Shown one piece after another: positions 52,036 to 55,861 of a stretch of DNA of 64,000 nt. Origin of the DNA: Escherichia coli (GTDB lineage Bacteria > Pseudomonadota > Gammaproteobacteria > Enterobacterales > Enterobacteriaceae); NCBI RefSeq assembly GCF_003019035.1, contig NZ_CP027447.1; one strand, 5' to 3'. The notes under the pieces are model-generated. The model saw nothing but the letters and a program-made list of their open reading frames with translations, did no database searches and was not told the origin of the DNA. Position numbers and translations under genes: made by a program. Position 1 is the stretch's first letter; each line of letters starts with the position of its first letter.

Positions 52036-52754
52036 CCGAGTTACCAATCGACGAAAACACACCGCGTATTTTGATCGTGGAAGATGAACCGAAGCTGGGG
52101 CAGTTGCTCATTGATTATCTGCGTGCTGCTAGCTATGCGCCAACGTTGATTAGCCACGGCGATCAGGTACTGCCATATGTGCGCCAGACACCACCGGATC
52201 TGATCCTGTTGGATCTGATGCTCCCTGGCACCGATGGCCTGACGCTGTGCCGGGAAATTCGTCGTTTTTCTGACATTCCGATCGTGATGGTGACGGCAAA
52301 AATCGAAGAGATCGACCGCCTGCTGGGGTTGGAGATTGGCGCAGATGACTATATCTGCAAGCCGTACAGCCCACGGGAAGTGGTAGCGCGCGTCAAAACC
52401 ATTTTGCGCCGTTGCAAACCGCAGCGTGAGTTGCAGCAACAGGATGCTGAAAGCCCGTTGATTATCGACGAAGGTCGTTTTCAGGCTTCATGGCGCGGTA
52501 AAATGCTTGACCTGACGCCTGCGGAATTTCGTCTGCTGAAAACGCTCTCTCATGAACCAGGAAAAGTGTTCTCCCGCGAGCAATTGCTCAATCATCTTTA
52601 TGACGACTACCGCGTAGTAACCGACCGCACCATCGACAGCCACATTAAAAACCTGCGCCGCAAGCTGGAATCTCTCGACGCCGAACAGTCATTTATCCGC
52701 GCCGTTTACGGCGTCGGTTACCGCTGGGAAGCCGACGCCTGCCGCATCGTTTAA
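52032..52754 (+). CDS. baeR: OmpR-family response regulator BaeR
   Basis: 240-aa ORF; receiver domain ([14 protein letters not shown]…DLMLPGTDG) and winged-helix output. Confidence 0.95.
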
Positions 52755-52765
52755 TATTTTTACCT

Positions 52766-52795
52766 GCCGGAGAAGGCATTCACGCCGCATCCGGC
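52766..52795. repeat. REP element (single unit)
   Basis: gccggagaaggcattcacgccgcatccggc. Confidence 0.6.
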
Positions 52796-52933
52796 AACAT
52801 TATCCCATGCATTGTCGGCTATCTGACATTATCTCTCCGCCCTGGCAAGCACCTGAAAATCGCTCATACTTTAATCGGCAAACAGTCCTTTTAGATGCTG
52901 TTTTCGATACGCAATTTCAATCAAGGAGTCATT

Positions 52934-53266
52934 ATGGCTGGTTGGTTTGAACTCAGTAAGAGCAGTGATAATCAGTTCCGGTTTGTGCTAAAAGCGGGCA
53001 ATGGTGAGACTATCCTCACCAGCGAGCTGTATACCTCAAAAGCCTCTGCGGAAAAGGGCATCGCGTCGGTACGTAGCAACAGCCCGCAAGAAGAACGCTA
53101 TGAGAAAAAAACGGCAAGCAACGGCAAATTCTATTTCAATCTGAAAGCCGCCAATCATCAAATTATCGGCTCCAGCCAGATGTACGCCACCGCGCAATCT
53201 CGTGAAACCGGAATTGCCTCCGTTAAAGCCAATGGCACAAGCCAGACGGTAAAAGACAATACGTAA
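52934..53266 (+). CDS. yegP: YegP (UPF0339/DUF1508 tandem-repeat protein)
   Basis: 110-aa product MAGWFELSKSSDNQFRF… with internal duplication; RBS aaggag 6 nt upstream. Confidence 0.9.
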   Translation: MAGWFELSKSSDNQFRFVLKAGNGETILTSELYTSKASAEKGIASVRSNSPQEERYEKKTASNGKFYFNLKAANHQIIGSSQMYATAQSRETGIASVKANGTSQTVKDNT

Positions 53267-53273
53267 TTACGAT

Positions 53274-53305
53274 GCCGGGCGTGGGTTGTTGGCGTCCGGC
53301 TTTAT
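53274..53305 (+). terminator. Rho-independent terminator of yegP
   Basis: GC-rich hairpin gccgggcgtgggttgttggcgtccggc followed by tttat. Confidence 0.55.
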
Positions 53306-53519
53306 ATCAAAACAACTCTTAGTTATTGATAATTAAGATTAACCTCCGCCATTAAAATAGTGGGCACTGACGAGCACTCGTTGTGCTTTCTTTGTTTACC
53401 ATCCCATACTTATCTTCCTGAACATGTTCATATGCCAAAATATCTTCTAATACTTTCGTGACGCTATCCGGTTTATGAAATACACTGATGTAAGATTTTT
53501 ACTTACAGGCGGGTGTAAA

Positions 53520-53771
53520 ATGGCCAGAACGATGACGGTTGATCTCGGCGATGAGTTGCGTGAATTTATCGAGTCCTTAATTGAATCCGGCGACTATCGC
53601 ACCCAAAGCGAAGTGATCCGTGAGTCGCTGCGCTTACTTCGAGAAAAGCAAGCAGAGTCTCGCCTGCAAGCGTTACGTGACATGCTCGCTGAAGGGTTGA
53701 GTAGTGGTGAAGCTCAGCCGTGGGAAAAGGACGCGTTTTTACGGAAGGTGAAAGCAGGGATAAGGAAATAA
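53520..53771 (+). CDS. parD: Type II antitoxin ParD (ribbon-helix-helix)
   Basis: 83-aa product MARTMTVDLGDELREFIESLIESGDYRTQSEVIRESLRLLREK… characteristic ParD N-terminus; stop overlaps downstream toxin start region. Confidence 0.8.
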   Translation: MARTMTVDLGDELREFIESLIESGDYRTQSEVIRESLRLLREKQAESRLQALRDMLAEGLSSGEAQPWEKDAFLRKVKAGIRK

Positions 53772-53772
53772 T

Positions 53773-54069
53773 GTGCGTACTATAAAACTCATGCCAAAAG
53801 CCAATGAGGATTTAGAAGGCATCTGGTATTACAGCTATCACCATTTCGGCGAACCACAAGCCGACAGATATGTGGAACATCTTTCAGACGTTCTCCAGAT
53901 TCTGAGTAACAATAATATAGGTACGCCCAGACCTGAATTAGGCGAAGGTATTTTTGTTCTTCCTTTTGAACGCCACGTAATTTATTTCCTGCAATCACCA
54001 GAGGAAATTATCGTCATTCGTATCCTTAACCAAAACCAGTACGCCTCCAGACATTTACACTGGAGCTAA
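53773..54069 (+). CDS. parE: Type II toxin ParE (RelE/ParE superfamily); GTG start
   Basis: 98-aa ORF …ANEDLEGIWYYSYHHFGEPQADRYVEHL…HVIYFLQSPEEIIVIRILNQNQ…; starts 2 nt after parD stop. Confidence 0.8.
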   Translation: MRTIKLMPKANEDLEGIWYYSYHHFGEPQADRYVEHLSDVLQILSNNNIGTPRPELGEGIFVLPFERHVIYFLQSPEEIIVIRILNQNQYASRHLHWS

Positions 54070-54171
54070 ACCCGCCGATTGCGCTACAATGCCCGCCCTT
54101 AAAGTGGGGGCACTCCCCTAACCGCTTCATCAGGTGAAGCGGATCTGACCTGTCATCAGAACGAGAGAATT

Positions 54172-55533
54172 ATGTTTAAACCGGAACTCCTTTCCCCGGC
54201 GGGAACGCTGAAAAATATGCGTTACGCTTTCGCTTATGGCGCAGATGCTGTTTATGCGGGCCAGCCGCGTTACTCCCTGCGTGTGCGCAACAACGAATTC
54301 AACCACGAAAATCTCCAGCTCGGCATCAATGAAGCCCACGCGCTGGGGAAAAAGTTTTATGTCGTGGTCAACATTGCACCGCACAACGCCAAGCTGAAAA
54401 CCTTTATCCGTGACCTGAAACCGGTGGTGGAGATGGGGCCGGATGCGCTGATTATGTCCGATCCAGGGCTGATTATGCTGGTGCGCGAGCACTTCCCTGA
54501 AATGCCGATCCACCTCTCGGTGCAGGCTAACGCCGTGAACTGGGCGACGGTGAAATTCTGGCAGCAAATGGGACTGACCCGCGTGATCCTCTCTCGCGAG
54601 CTGTCGCTGGAAGAGATTGAAGAGATCCGTAATCAGGTGCCGGGTATGGAGATCGAGATCTTCGTTCACGGTGCGCTGTGCATGGCCTACTCCGGTCGCT
54701 GCCTGCTCTCTGGCTATATCAACAAGCGCGACCCGAACCAGGGCACCTGCACCAACGCCTGCCGCTGGGAGTACAACGTCCAGGAAGGGAAAGAAGATGA
54801 CGTTGGCAACATCGTGCACAAGTACGAGCCGATTCCGGTGCAAAATGTTGAGCCGACGCTGGGCATCGGCGCGCCAACCGACAAAGTGTTTATGATCGAA
54901 GAAGCTCAGCGTCCGGGCGAGTATATGACTGCGTTTGAAGATGAGCACGGCACTTACATCATGAACTCGAAAGATCTGCGCGCTATCGCCCACGTTGAAC
55001 GCCTGACCAAAATGGGCGTGCATTCGCTGAAAATCGAAGGTCGTACAAAATCTTTCTACTATTGCGCACGCACCGCGCAGGTTTACCGTAAAGCTATCGA
55101 TGACGCAGCTGCGGGAAAACCATTCGATACCAGCCTGCTGGAAACTCTGGAAGGTCTGGCGCATCGTGGCTATACCGAAGGTTTCCTGCGTCGTCATACT
55201 CACGACGATTATCAGAACTACGAATACGGTTATTCAGTTTCTGACCGCCAGCAGTTTGTTGGTGAGTTTACCGGTGAGCGCAAGGGCGACCTCGCGGCGG
55301 TAGCGGTGAAAAATAAATTCTCCGTTGGCGACAGCCTTGAGCTGATGACGCCGCAAGGGAACATTAACTTTACCCTTGAGCATATGGAAAACGCCAAAGG
55401 TGAAGCTATGCCGGTCGCACCAGGCGATGGTTATACTGTGTGGATCCCGGTGCCGCAGGATCTTGAGCTAAATTACGCGCTGCTGATGCGTAATTTCTCC
55501 GGGGAAACCACGCGTAACCCCCACGGTAAGTGA
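54172..55533 (+). CDS. yegQ: Peptidase-U32-family protein YegQ (TrhP, implicated in tRNA ho5U synthesis)
   Basis: 453-aa ORF MFKPELLSPAGTLKNMRYAFAYGADAVYAG…. Confidence 0.92.
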   Translation: MFKPELLSPAGTLKNMRYAFAYGADAVYAGQPRYSLRVRNNEFNHENLQLGINEAHALGKKFYVVVNIAPHNAKLKTFIRDLKPVVEMGPDALIMSDPGLIMLVREHFPEMPIHLSVQANAVNWATVKFWQQMGLTRVILSRELSLEEIEEIRNQVPGMEIEIFVHGALCMAYSGRCLLSGYINKRDPNQGTCTNACRWEYNVQEGKEDDVGNIVHKYEPIPVQNVEPTLGIGAPTDKVFMIEEAQRPGEYMTAFEDEHGTYIMNSKDLRAIAHVERLTKMGVHSLKIEGRTKSFYYCARTAQVYRKAIDDAAAGKPFDTSLLETLEGLAHRGYTEGFLRRHTHDDYQNYEYGYSVSDRQQFVGEFTGERKGDLAAVAVKNKFSVGDSLELMTPQGNINFTLEHMENAKGEAMPVAPGDGYTVWIPVPQDLELNYALLMRNFSGETTRNPHGK

Positions 55534-55861
55534 TTCATTTCGATTATTTTTCCCGGATGGAAAATTCTTAGAAACCGATCACATACAGCTGCATTTATTA
55601 AGGTTATCATCCGTTTCGCTGAAAAACATAACCCATAAAATGCTAGCTGTACCAGGAACCACCTCCTTAGCCTGTGTAATCTCCCTTACACGGGCTTATT
55701 TTTTATACATAAGCCGTATCCTGGTAACCGTCTTCCATTGACCACATCGATAGAATCTCCCCTCATAGCACGATGCCTTTCACTTATTGGCATCGTGCTC
55801 GCACAGGTTCCGGTTACGCACAGCCAGAACGCGCATGTTTGACGCTTACCAAAAAATATTC

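Follow-up and report, generated by a model that had tools for sequence, protein, structure and literature searches.

The closest solved relative of the toxin-antitoxin pair described here is PrpA/PrpT, encoded by plasmid pMBL6842 of Pseudoalteromonas rubra (PDB 7YCS; PMC7848731, PMC9731233), the structure being identified as PrpA/PrpT in PMC13048266. The antitoxin PrpA is labile and autoregulates its own operon; in addition, it binds the iterons of the plasmid, thereby limiting copy number (PMC7848731). For the toxin VcParE2, inhibition of gyrase has been shown, and weak toxicity is known for some other ParE homologues, such as PaParE1 (10.1101/2025.07.24.666505). ParDE-I, a plasmid system, was found to confer tolerance to antibiotics and heat, with the SOS response being induced (PMC6614396). 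Coluzzi et al. linked a RelE/ParE gene family to the evolution of quinolone resistance, with no tie to the yegP-yegQ locus being established (PMC10575684). A 2025 review lists ParDE of Escherichia coli only as a plasmid system. Searching the literature for yegQ or yegP in combination with ParDE or toxin-antitoxin terms gave no experimental work on the yegP-yegQ pair. The parE genes of AIEC pair with higA and lie at different loci.

Here, we describe a ParD/ParE pair in the window, i.e., the whole 64-kb stretch of E. coli DNA that was analysed. The pair probably represents a type II toxin-antitoxin cassette, of the ParD(PF03693)/ParE kind, that was acquired horizontally and inserted into the spacer between yegP and yegQ. 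The locus has the traits of such an operon, in that two small, adjacent and co-oriented genes, with the antitoxin first and a 1-nt gap between them, follow a promoter of their own. Its distribution is that of an accessory and mobile element: the cassette is found in 34% of complete E. coli genomes, has relatives on plasmids, is low in GC and is less diverged than its flanks.

The yegP-yegQ locus and its regulatory sequences

In the window, mdtD-baeS-baeR lies upstream and is followed by yegP (52934-53266), parDE and yegQ (also named trhP; 54172-55533). On the plus strand, parD (53520-53771; 83 aa) extends from an ATG at 53520 to a TAA at 53769-53771, and parE (53773-54069; 98 aa) from a GTG at 53773 to a TAA at 54067-54069. 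A single base separates the two genes, and an AAGGA ribosome-binding site stands 6-7 nt before the GTG of parE. The yegP-yegQ spacer measures 905 bp, as compared with 146 bp in K-12 BW25113, where no gene is present in it. An earlier note on this DNA had proposed a ribbon-helix-helix (RHH) ParD-like antitoxin of 83 aa and a ParE-like toxin of 98 aa with a GTG start, placed between yegP and yegQ beside mdtABCD-baeSR, in a gap of ~900 bp that would be only ~150 bp in K-12. The spacer lengths, the adjacency of mdtD-baeSR and the absence of both genes from BW25113 bear this out, and the left coordinate given in that note, 53306, is essentially the left junction of the cassette. In strain SCU-301, which has an identical spacer, RefSeq annotates the two genes as 'ParD family antitoxin' (WP_001329834.1) and 'RelE/ParE family toxin' (WP_001259172.1).

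Alignment to the spacers of K-12, Z142-7 and E. albertii delimits the cassette-specific DNA as a segment of 776 bp on the plus strand (53305-54080). In its place, K-12 has 15 bp, CCAGAGCCCCCCACA, and E. albertii, which also lacks the cassette, has 15 bp at the same position. The GC content is 43.3% in the cassette and 35.8% in its left arm, as compared with 51.7% for the window. This AT-rich, non-coding left arm (53305-53457, plus strand) holds no ORF longer than 33 aa and is kept in E. whittamii and in the Escherichia lineage L019 at ~81%. A search of plasmid records with positions 53301-53519 gave no true plasmid match, as both hits were mislabelled chromosomes of 1.4 and 4.8 Mb. An Rfam scan of 52700-54400 returned nothing near the gathering score, the best match being a sub-threshold naRNA4 at 52765-52805.

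The cassette and the resident spacer also share a 23-bp imperfect direct repeat on the plus strand, with 19 of 23 positions matching, a score equalled in 1 of 2,000 shuffles. Its left copy (53346-53368) lies inside the left arm, and its right copy (54093-54114) belongs to resident sequence that is common to K-12. An origin of the K-12 spacer by recombination between these two repeats was ruled out, as the sequence lying left of the left copy is missing from K-12. Likewise, the 21-bp middle of the K-12 spacer was considered as a relic of the 3' end of parE, and this was rejected: its match to the window is no better than that of shuffles. Against parE of Escherichia sp. E1V33, the same 21 bp gave a marginal match (133 of 5,000 shuffles). 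Since the middle of the K-12 spacer matches the parE 3' end only at a shuffle-like or marginal level, the junction sequence by itself is compatible with an insertion as well as with a deletion.

A putative sigma-70 promoter of parDE can be read from the sequence at 53458-53486 on the plus strand, consisting of a -35 element GTGACG (53458-53463), a 17-nt spacer and a -10 element TACACT (53481-53486). It agrees with the consensus at 8 of 12 positions and was not listed by the promoter scan, because the scan needs 9 of 12. The upstream regions of six loci were compared, i.e., those of the window, E. whittamii, Pluralibacter gergoviae, a Klebsiella pneumoniae IncF plasmid, a Salmonella plasmid and L013, a locus with a ParE that shares only 44% identity with that of the window. 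Just two blocks are conserved upstream of parD in these loci. The first is the -10 element, in which the TAnnnT positions are invariant in all six; the second is a palindrome, GTAAG-N7-CTTAC, at 53490-53506 on the plus strand. It is placed 3 nt past the -10 (3-4 nt across the loci) and 14 nt ahead of the parD ATG, and its arms are kept while the 7-nt spacer between them varies; in the Salmonella plasmid, one arm reads CTTAT. The motif occurs once in the 64-kb window, with 0.02 occurrences expected. Given this position and conservation, the palindrome is a likely operator for the RHH antitoxin ParD, overlapping the transcription start, for which positions of about 53493-53497 are predicted.

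Two terminator-like hairpins were found between yegP and parD, one at 53274-53300 and a second, within the cassette's left arm, at 53372-53388 on the plus strand (to 53397 with its T-run). Because these hairpins part yegP from parD and a separate promoter serves parDE, the adjacency of parDE to baeSR-mdtABCD looks incidental. A scan of the window found no terminator after parE. On the downstream side, the short K-12 spacer contains a promoter-like site, TTTACC-17-TACAAT, directly before yegQ (9 of 12 consensus positions; 0.2 sites expected). The cassette is inserted between the TTTACC -35 and the TACAAT -10 of this site, the latter (54085-54090, plus strand) being part of the flanking sequence and not of the cassette, and the same scan found no plus-strand promoter-like site before yegQ in the window. 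Since the cassette splits the site and parE is followed by no terminator, yegQ may be partly read through from the parDE promoter in cassette-bearing strains.

Family, fold and constraint of ParD and ParE

ParD matches TIGR02606 with 88.4 bits (cut-off 46.2), PF03693 over residues 1-78 (4.7e-19) and, weakly, RHH_1 (0.0034). In a PDB sequence search, it aligns over its full length with the solved ParD/PrpA chains 7YCS_D, 7B22, 3KXE_C and 8C24_C, and the alignment with PrpA of 7YCS (E 1.9e-27) begins at the Met encoded at 53520. By these matches, ParD is an RHH antitoxin, with a predicted N-terminal DNA-binding domain and a C-terminal toxin-binding region. RefSeq calls a ParD of 98 aa from an ATG at 53475. 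This start was rejected as too long, because the ATG sits inside the promoter, between the -35 and the -10, its frame is lost in E. whittamii and L019 through a 1-nt indel, and PrpA, the plasmid ParDs and other homologues start at the MARTMTV position. The 83-aa start appears better supported than the RefSeq call on these comparisons, and the correction is a small annotation improvement.

The toxin matches PF05016 over residues 4-89 (2.9e-13) and no NCBIfam model at E 0.01 or better. When ParE was used in the PDB sequence search, PrpT, CcParE1, VcParE2 and MtParE1 were retrieved, and all significant hits were ParD/ParE pairs; RelE, YoeB, YafQ and HigB were not among them. The HMM and PDB matches thus confirm the ParD and ParE families named in the earlier note. 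For structural prediction, an alignment of 105 representatives was drawn from an exhaustive HMMER search that yielded 1,673 relatives at E 0.001 or better. The AlphaFold2 model built from this alignment has a mean pLDDT of 93.4 and comprises the elements E3-6, H8-25, H27-46, E60-65, E68-74 and E78-86, i.e., a short strand, then a hairpin of two helices in the N-terminal part and finally a sheet of three strands. In a Foldseek search against the PDB, the best 23 matches of the model are all ParE-type toxins, with TM scores of 0.66-0.87. PrpT, MtParE1, VcParE2 and CcParE1 score 0.83-0.87, as against 0.49-0.66 for the RNases RelE, YoeB and YafQ. These scores place the toxin in the ParE branch and not in the RelE branch; as modelled, its fold is of the ParE type and distinct from that of RelE-type RNases.

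All nine positions that are near-invariant in the family (A10, D13, I17, G26, A30, Y33, H68, R83 and L85) are kept in the window ParE. Position 86 is His in 86 of the 105 relatives and Asn in the window ParE, with Ser or Asn found throughout the enterobacterial subclade. The equivalent residue in VcParE2 is His88, one of four residues whose change to Ala, on top of Trp25Ala, cut toxicity most (10.1101/2025.07.24.666505). Trp25 of VcParE2 itself corresponds to a Phe in the window ParE, as it does in 35 of the 105 relatives, and toxicity of VcParE2 was lowered by W25F (10.1101/2025.07.24.666505). Position 90 is Asp in 83 of the 105 relatives and in the other E. coli and the E. whittamii alleles, and Tyr in the window allele. 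On account of Asn86, the Phe at the Trp25 position and Tyr90, attenuated toxicity of the window ParE is conceivable.

The three ParE alleles of E. coli are all common, each being on at least 1,000 contigs, and the parE ORF is unbroken in all four of the E. coli and E. whittamii alleles that were examined. Between Escherichia lineages, pN/pS is 0.12-0.20 for parE and 0.03 for parD (the latter versus E. whittamii), the pN of parE being roughly four times that of parD. A similar asymmetry is seen against the K. pneumoniae IncF plasmid homologue. ParD is 91.6% identical to its plasmid counterpart, with 44 of 45 residues shared in the DNA-binding half and 32 of 38 in the toxin-binding half; ParE is 65.3% identical. 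In this comparison, pS is ~0.8, which is saturated, and is alike for the two genes, and pN/pS calculated with this saturated pS is 0.07 for parD and 0.25 for parE. Because both genes have the same saturated pS, the asymmetry in identity reflects selection and not a recent mosaic, and the saturation of synonymous sites also indicates that the split between the chromosomal and plasmid copies is old. Judging from these substitution patterns, both genes are under purifying selection, and ParD is far more constrained than ParE.

Distribution, history and proposed function

Among 5,426 complete E. coli genomes, the 905-bp spacer with the cassette is present in 1,843 (34%) and the short K-12-type spacer in 3,182 (59%); other yegP-yegQ states account for ~400. 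For example, in the B2 strain A0 34/86, a PcfJ/DUF1266/DUF4034 island abuts yegQ, with the last 19 nt of parE being kept. Strain AR_0128 carries the cassette, yet its BaeS and YegQ proteins do not differ from their K-12 counterparts; thus, the cassette polymorphism segregates within similar backgrounds. At the same site, E. whittamii has an intact pair, with ParD and ParE 98.8% and 91.8% identical to those of the window, and in L019, an intact parD precedes a parE that is interrupted by two nonsense codons. In Escherichia sp. E1V33 and E3659, the cassette is reduced by an internal deletion to its left arm and the 3' half of parE. In E. albertii, the spacer is short and its junction is the same as in K-12.

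Between these Escherichia lineages, synonymous divergence is 0.10-0.18 in the cassette, as compared with 0.34-0.40 in the flanking genes (Fisher p 2e-6 to 6e-10), and the non-coding arm of the cassette has diverged to a similar degree as its genes (~0.19). The empty site of E. albertii and the lower divergence of the cassette relative to its flanks suggest a gain followed by spread through recombination. Together with the low GC content, the empty E. albertii site and the low cassette pS also point to a horizontal origin. From these comparisons, we infer that the short spacer is the ancestral empty site, that the cassette was gained once, and that homologous recombination in yegP and yegQ later carried it from one lineage to another, with several cases of decay or loss since then.

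Among plasmids, ParE has relatives on 2,559 records, most of which are large conjugative plasmids from Klebsiella, Escherichia, Enterobacter and Salmonella, and the best true plasmid copies are 64-66% identical. Several relatives are damaged. A copy in P. gergoviae, located between alr and tyrB, has ATA as its parD start and a frameshifted parE, and frameshifted copies are also present in IncF plasmids. The copy on E. coli IncFIA/FIB plasmids lies ~1.4 kb from the replication gene repB, on the far side of a recombinase gene; it contains stop codons and is interrupted by IS1. In the phage collection, only a 42-residue ParE fragment was found, in a 2-kb Salmonella record.

For the preferred reading, a horizontally acquired ParD/ParE cassette, the mechanistic steps can be drawn from the literature on RK2 ParE, VcParE2, MtParE1 and PaParE and from general background. 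ParD dimers, whether free or in complex with ParE, would bind the GTAAG-N7-CTTAC operator and repress the operon, and the C-terminal half of ParD would wrap ParE and neutralise it. Once ParD is degraded and not replaced, free ParE would bind DNA gyrase (GyrA), and the gyrase-bound toxin would block supercoiling and/or trap cleavage complexes, leading to the SOS response and growth arrest. By analogy with these systems, the window ParE is presumably toxic through gyrase poisoning, and an effect on quinolone tolerance is possible. The cassette as a whole would be a dispensable, selfish accessory element that spreads by recombination through its conserved flanks and has repeatedly decayed.

Alternatively, the module may be attenuated or decaying. 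The ParE of the subclade, or at least the D90Y allele, would then be weakly toxic or non-toxic, and the cassette would persist owing to some benefit of ParD or to a slow rate of loss. We consider this unlikely, as the pN/pS of parE is well under 1 (0.12-0.25), none of the four alleles examined has a broken ORF, with each of the three E. coli alleles on at least 1,000 contigs, and Ser or Asn at position 86 is also found in plasmid-borne relatives that are presumably active. What speaks for an attenuated module is the combination of H86N and D90Y at conserved positions with Phe in place of the key Trp, the roughly fourfold higher pN of parE than of parD, and the L019 locus, in which parE has two nonsense codons and parD is intact. 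The decayed copies in E1V33, E3659, P. gergoviae and IncF plasmids are also in line with it, as is the fact that 59% of E. coli manage well in the cassette's absence.

Small interface changes can abolish cross-reaction between ParD and ParE proteins, as is known from ParD3/ParE3 specificity. It is quite unlikely that the cassette acts mainly through ParD in anti-addiction or cross-talk, with the chromosomal ParD neutralising or repressing the ParDE of IncF-type plasmids. Such a role would nevertheless fit the identity of 91.6% between ParD and the IncF plasmid ParD, as opposed to only 65% for ParE, the operator palindrome common to chromosome and plasmid loci, the relatives on 2,559 plasmid records and the orphan parD kept in L019. 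Given that PrpA binds plasmid iterons (PMC7848731), ParD might, by analogy, also interfere with plasmid replication. More doubtful still is a combined proposal, in which persistence is driven by ParD, through cross-repression or neutralisation of IncF ParDE or through replication interference, and yegQ expression is tied to toxin-antitoxin autoregulation in the third of E. coli with the cassette.

Abortive infection is a function of many type II toxin-antitoxin systems, and the yegP-yegQ site is a hotspot of integration at which other islands are found. For parDE, however, a role in phage defence of this kind is very improbable: neither ParD nor ParE matches any PADLOC model, the PHROGs matches of the toxin are only to families of unknown function, and no defence genes lie nearby. 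Finally, although PF05016 and the RefSeq name 'RelE/ParE family' span both activities, there is hardly any likelihood that the toxin is a RelE-like ribosome-dependent mRNA endonuclease instead of a gyrase poison, as the PDB sequence search gave ParE-type toxins only, the topology is the ParE one and the TM scores of 0.83-0.87 to ParE toxins compare with 0.66 or less to RNases.

Significance and comparison with known systems

The parDE call is correct but ordinary, as the pair is a widespread member of a well-known type of system. Since RefSeq already annotates both genes and the cassette is present in 1,843 complete genomes, the finding is not new. Newly described are the palindrome, the ParD start, the cassette in other Escherichia lineages, the ParD/ParE constraint and the split yegQ site. 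On its own, one more ParDE pair, present in thousands of genomes, matters little; a modest interest arises from the strong constraint on ParD, the operator common to plasmid homologues, the allele series and the possible rewiring of yegQ. In E. coli, the yegP-yegQ site exists in three states, i.e., empty, intact or replaced by another island, and the sister lineages add intact, nonsense-mutated and deleted versions, which together form a convenient natural system. This system would suit questions on the effect of a chromosomal ParE on gyrase and quinolone tolerance, any protection by a chromosomal ParD against plasmid addiction, and the entry and exit of toxin-antitoxin cassettes at intergenic sites. 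It also offers a setting for asking if a downstream tRNA-modification gene, in this case yegQ/trhP, is rewired by an insertion.

With regard to known systems, PrpA/PrpT has the same ParE/PF03693 pairing as the window pair. PrpT matches the window ParE with an E value of 9.2e-12 and a TM score of 0.87, although the identity is only ~32%. The reported PrpA motif TTTG(T/A)AAT differs from the palindrome at parDE, and a chromosome offers no obvious equivalent of the iteron role of PrpA. Caulobacter ParD1/ParE1 (3KXE), Vibrio cholerae ParD2/ParE2 (7R5A) and Mycobacterium tuberculosis ParD1/ParE1 (8C24) share the ParE fold (TM 0.83-0.84) and have their toxin wrapped by an RHH ParD, with identities of 26-30% to the window ParE. 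Compared with VcParE2, the window ParE has Phe for Trp25 and Asn for His88. Like VcParE2, MtParE1 is a gyrase inhibitor.

RK2 ParDE and ParDE-I of IncI/IncF plasmids also combine ParE-superfamily toxins with RHH antitoxins but represent different branches. The RK2 antitoxin belongs to PF09386, unlike the PF03693 ParD of the window; the ParDE-I antitoxin belongs to COG3905, and the ParDE-I toxin is only 15% identical to CcParE1. For this reason, ParDE-I (Kamruzzaman and Iredell) was rejected as the closest characterised relative, and the phenotypes reported for RK2 and ParDE-I, among them the frequently cited tolerance given by ParDE-I, are not simply transferable to the window pair.

Large enterobacterial plasmids carry further pairs of this kind, such as those of the K. 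pneumoniae IncFIB/FII plasmid NZ_CP132652.1 and the Salmonella plasmid pRM11065-1. To our knowledge, there is no experimental work on these plasmid ParDE pairs. They differ from the window pair in being sited on a plasmid and not between yegP and yegQ, and in a ParD that is 5 aa longer and overlaps parE. In common with it, they have the gene order, the GTG start of parE, the ParD family and the same GTAAG-N7-CTTAC palindrome past the -10, with ParD 87-92% and ParE 65-66% identical to the proteins of the window.

ParD start codon and the ParE allele

In the RefSeq (PGAP) annotation, parD begins at ATG 53475, giving a protein of 98 aa whose extra stretch is encoded by window 53475-53519. This codon is positioned between the -35 and -10 elements of the conserved promoter, and its equivalent does not share the parD reading frame in E. 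whittamii or in L019, a locus of an Escherichia lineage represented by run ERR1789821. No support for the 98-aa start was found among the homologues. Judging from these sequence comparisons, the true ParD start is likely at 53520, yielding an 83-aa antitoxin. Two residues of the window's toxin stand out. Codon 90 of parE (window 54040-54042) encodes Tyr, as opposed to Asp in 83 of the 105 relatives in the ParE alignment, and Asp also occupies this position in other Escherichia alleles; residue 3 is Thr in the window allele and Ile in the others. The Tyr90/Thr3 allele is nevertheless a common one, being present on at least 1,000 contigs.

Decay and a different island at the yegP-yegQ site

Several Escherichia loci carry damaged copies of the cassette at the same site. 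In L019, codons 14 and 74 of parE (L019 3342-3638) have both become nonsense codons, and the gene additionally carries R67H; the accompanying parD is intact and 98.8% identical. Decay here follows a toxin-first pattern, in which an orphan antitoxin is left behind. Escherichia sp. E1V33 (L007 1354-1700) and Escherichia sp. E3659 (L018 2834-3176) share an internal deletion of ~560 bp that takes out parD with its promoter and also the 5' half of parE. The left arm of the cassette and parE codons 56-98 were kept, leaving a spacer of ~345 bp.

The site can also hold other cargo. In the B2 strain E. coli A0 34/86 (NZ_CP120567.1, 1-3121; matching window 54051-54171), a different island, encoding PcfJ-domain, DUF1266 and DUF4034 proteins, adjoins yegQ, and its junction retains the last 19 nt of parE. 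The yegP-yegQ site is an integration hotspot. A 23-bp imperfect direct repeat was also found, with one copy within the cassette (CCGCCATTAAAATAGTGGGCACT, window 53346-53368) and the other in the resident spacer (CCGCCCTTAAAGTGGGGGCACT, 54093-54114); an equal score was reached in 1 of 2,000 shuffles. The K-12 junction is not explained by this repeat.

The yegQ leader and neighbouring features

Upstream of yegQ, the short spacer contains a promoter-like site, TTTACC-17-TACAAT (comparison locus L002, 4037-4065; window region 54081-54171), and the cassette parts its -35 from its -10 (TACAAT, window 54085-54090). No terminator was found 3' of parE in the window; transcription from the parDE promoter may therefore run on into yegQ. 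The yegQ leader further contains a perfect hairpin, CCGCTTCA-TCAGG-TGAAGCGG (window 54122-54142), which is identical across E. coli, E. albertii and E1V33 and shows one loop change in E. whittamii. Over its whole 91 bp, the leader is conserved far more strongly than the flanking genes are at their synonymous sites, a hint of a role in regulating yegQ/trhP.

Downstream, yegQ is followed by yegR after a gap of ~330 bp (window 55534-55861); the P2-like remnant located between these genes in K-12 (ogrK and a truncated late control D gene) is absent from the window. Between baeR and yegP, a sub-threshold Rfam match to the REP-type element naRNA4 was observed (window 52765-52805); it reaches 26.4 bits, where the gathering score is 59.5.

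Homologous pairs at other loci

Decayed homologous pairs were also found elsewhere. In Pluralibacter gergoviae ATCC 33028, such a pair lies between alr and tyrB (L006 3748-4297), with ParD 88% identical and ParE 67% identical over residues 43-97. Its parD has ATA in place of the start and has lost its stop, and its parE has a frameshift close to codon 43; the candidate operator palindrome, GTAAG-N7-CTTAC (window 53490-53506), is still present at this locus. On the E. coli IncFIA/FIB/FIC plasmid NZ_CP117004.1 (L010 2217-2600), parD is truncated by IS1, and parE contains a stop codon along with frameshifts. This broken pair, which recurs on several E. coli plasmids, is separated from the RepFIB repB gene by ~1.4 kb that includes a gene for a tyrosine recombinase.
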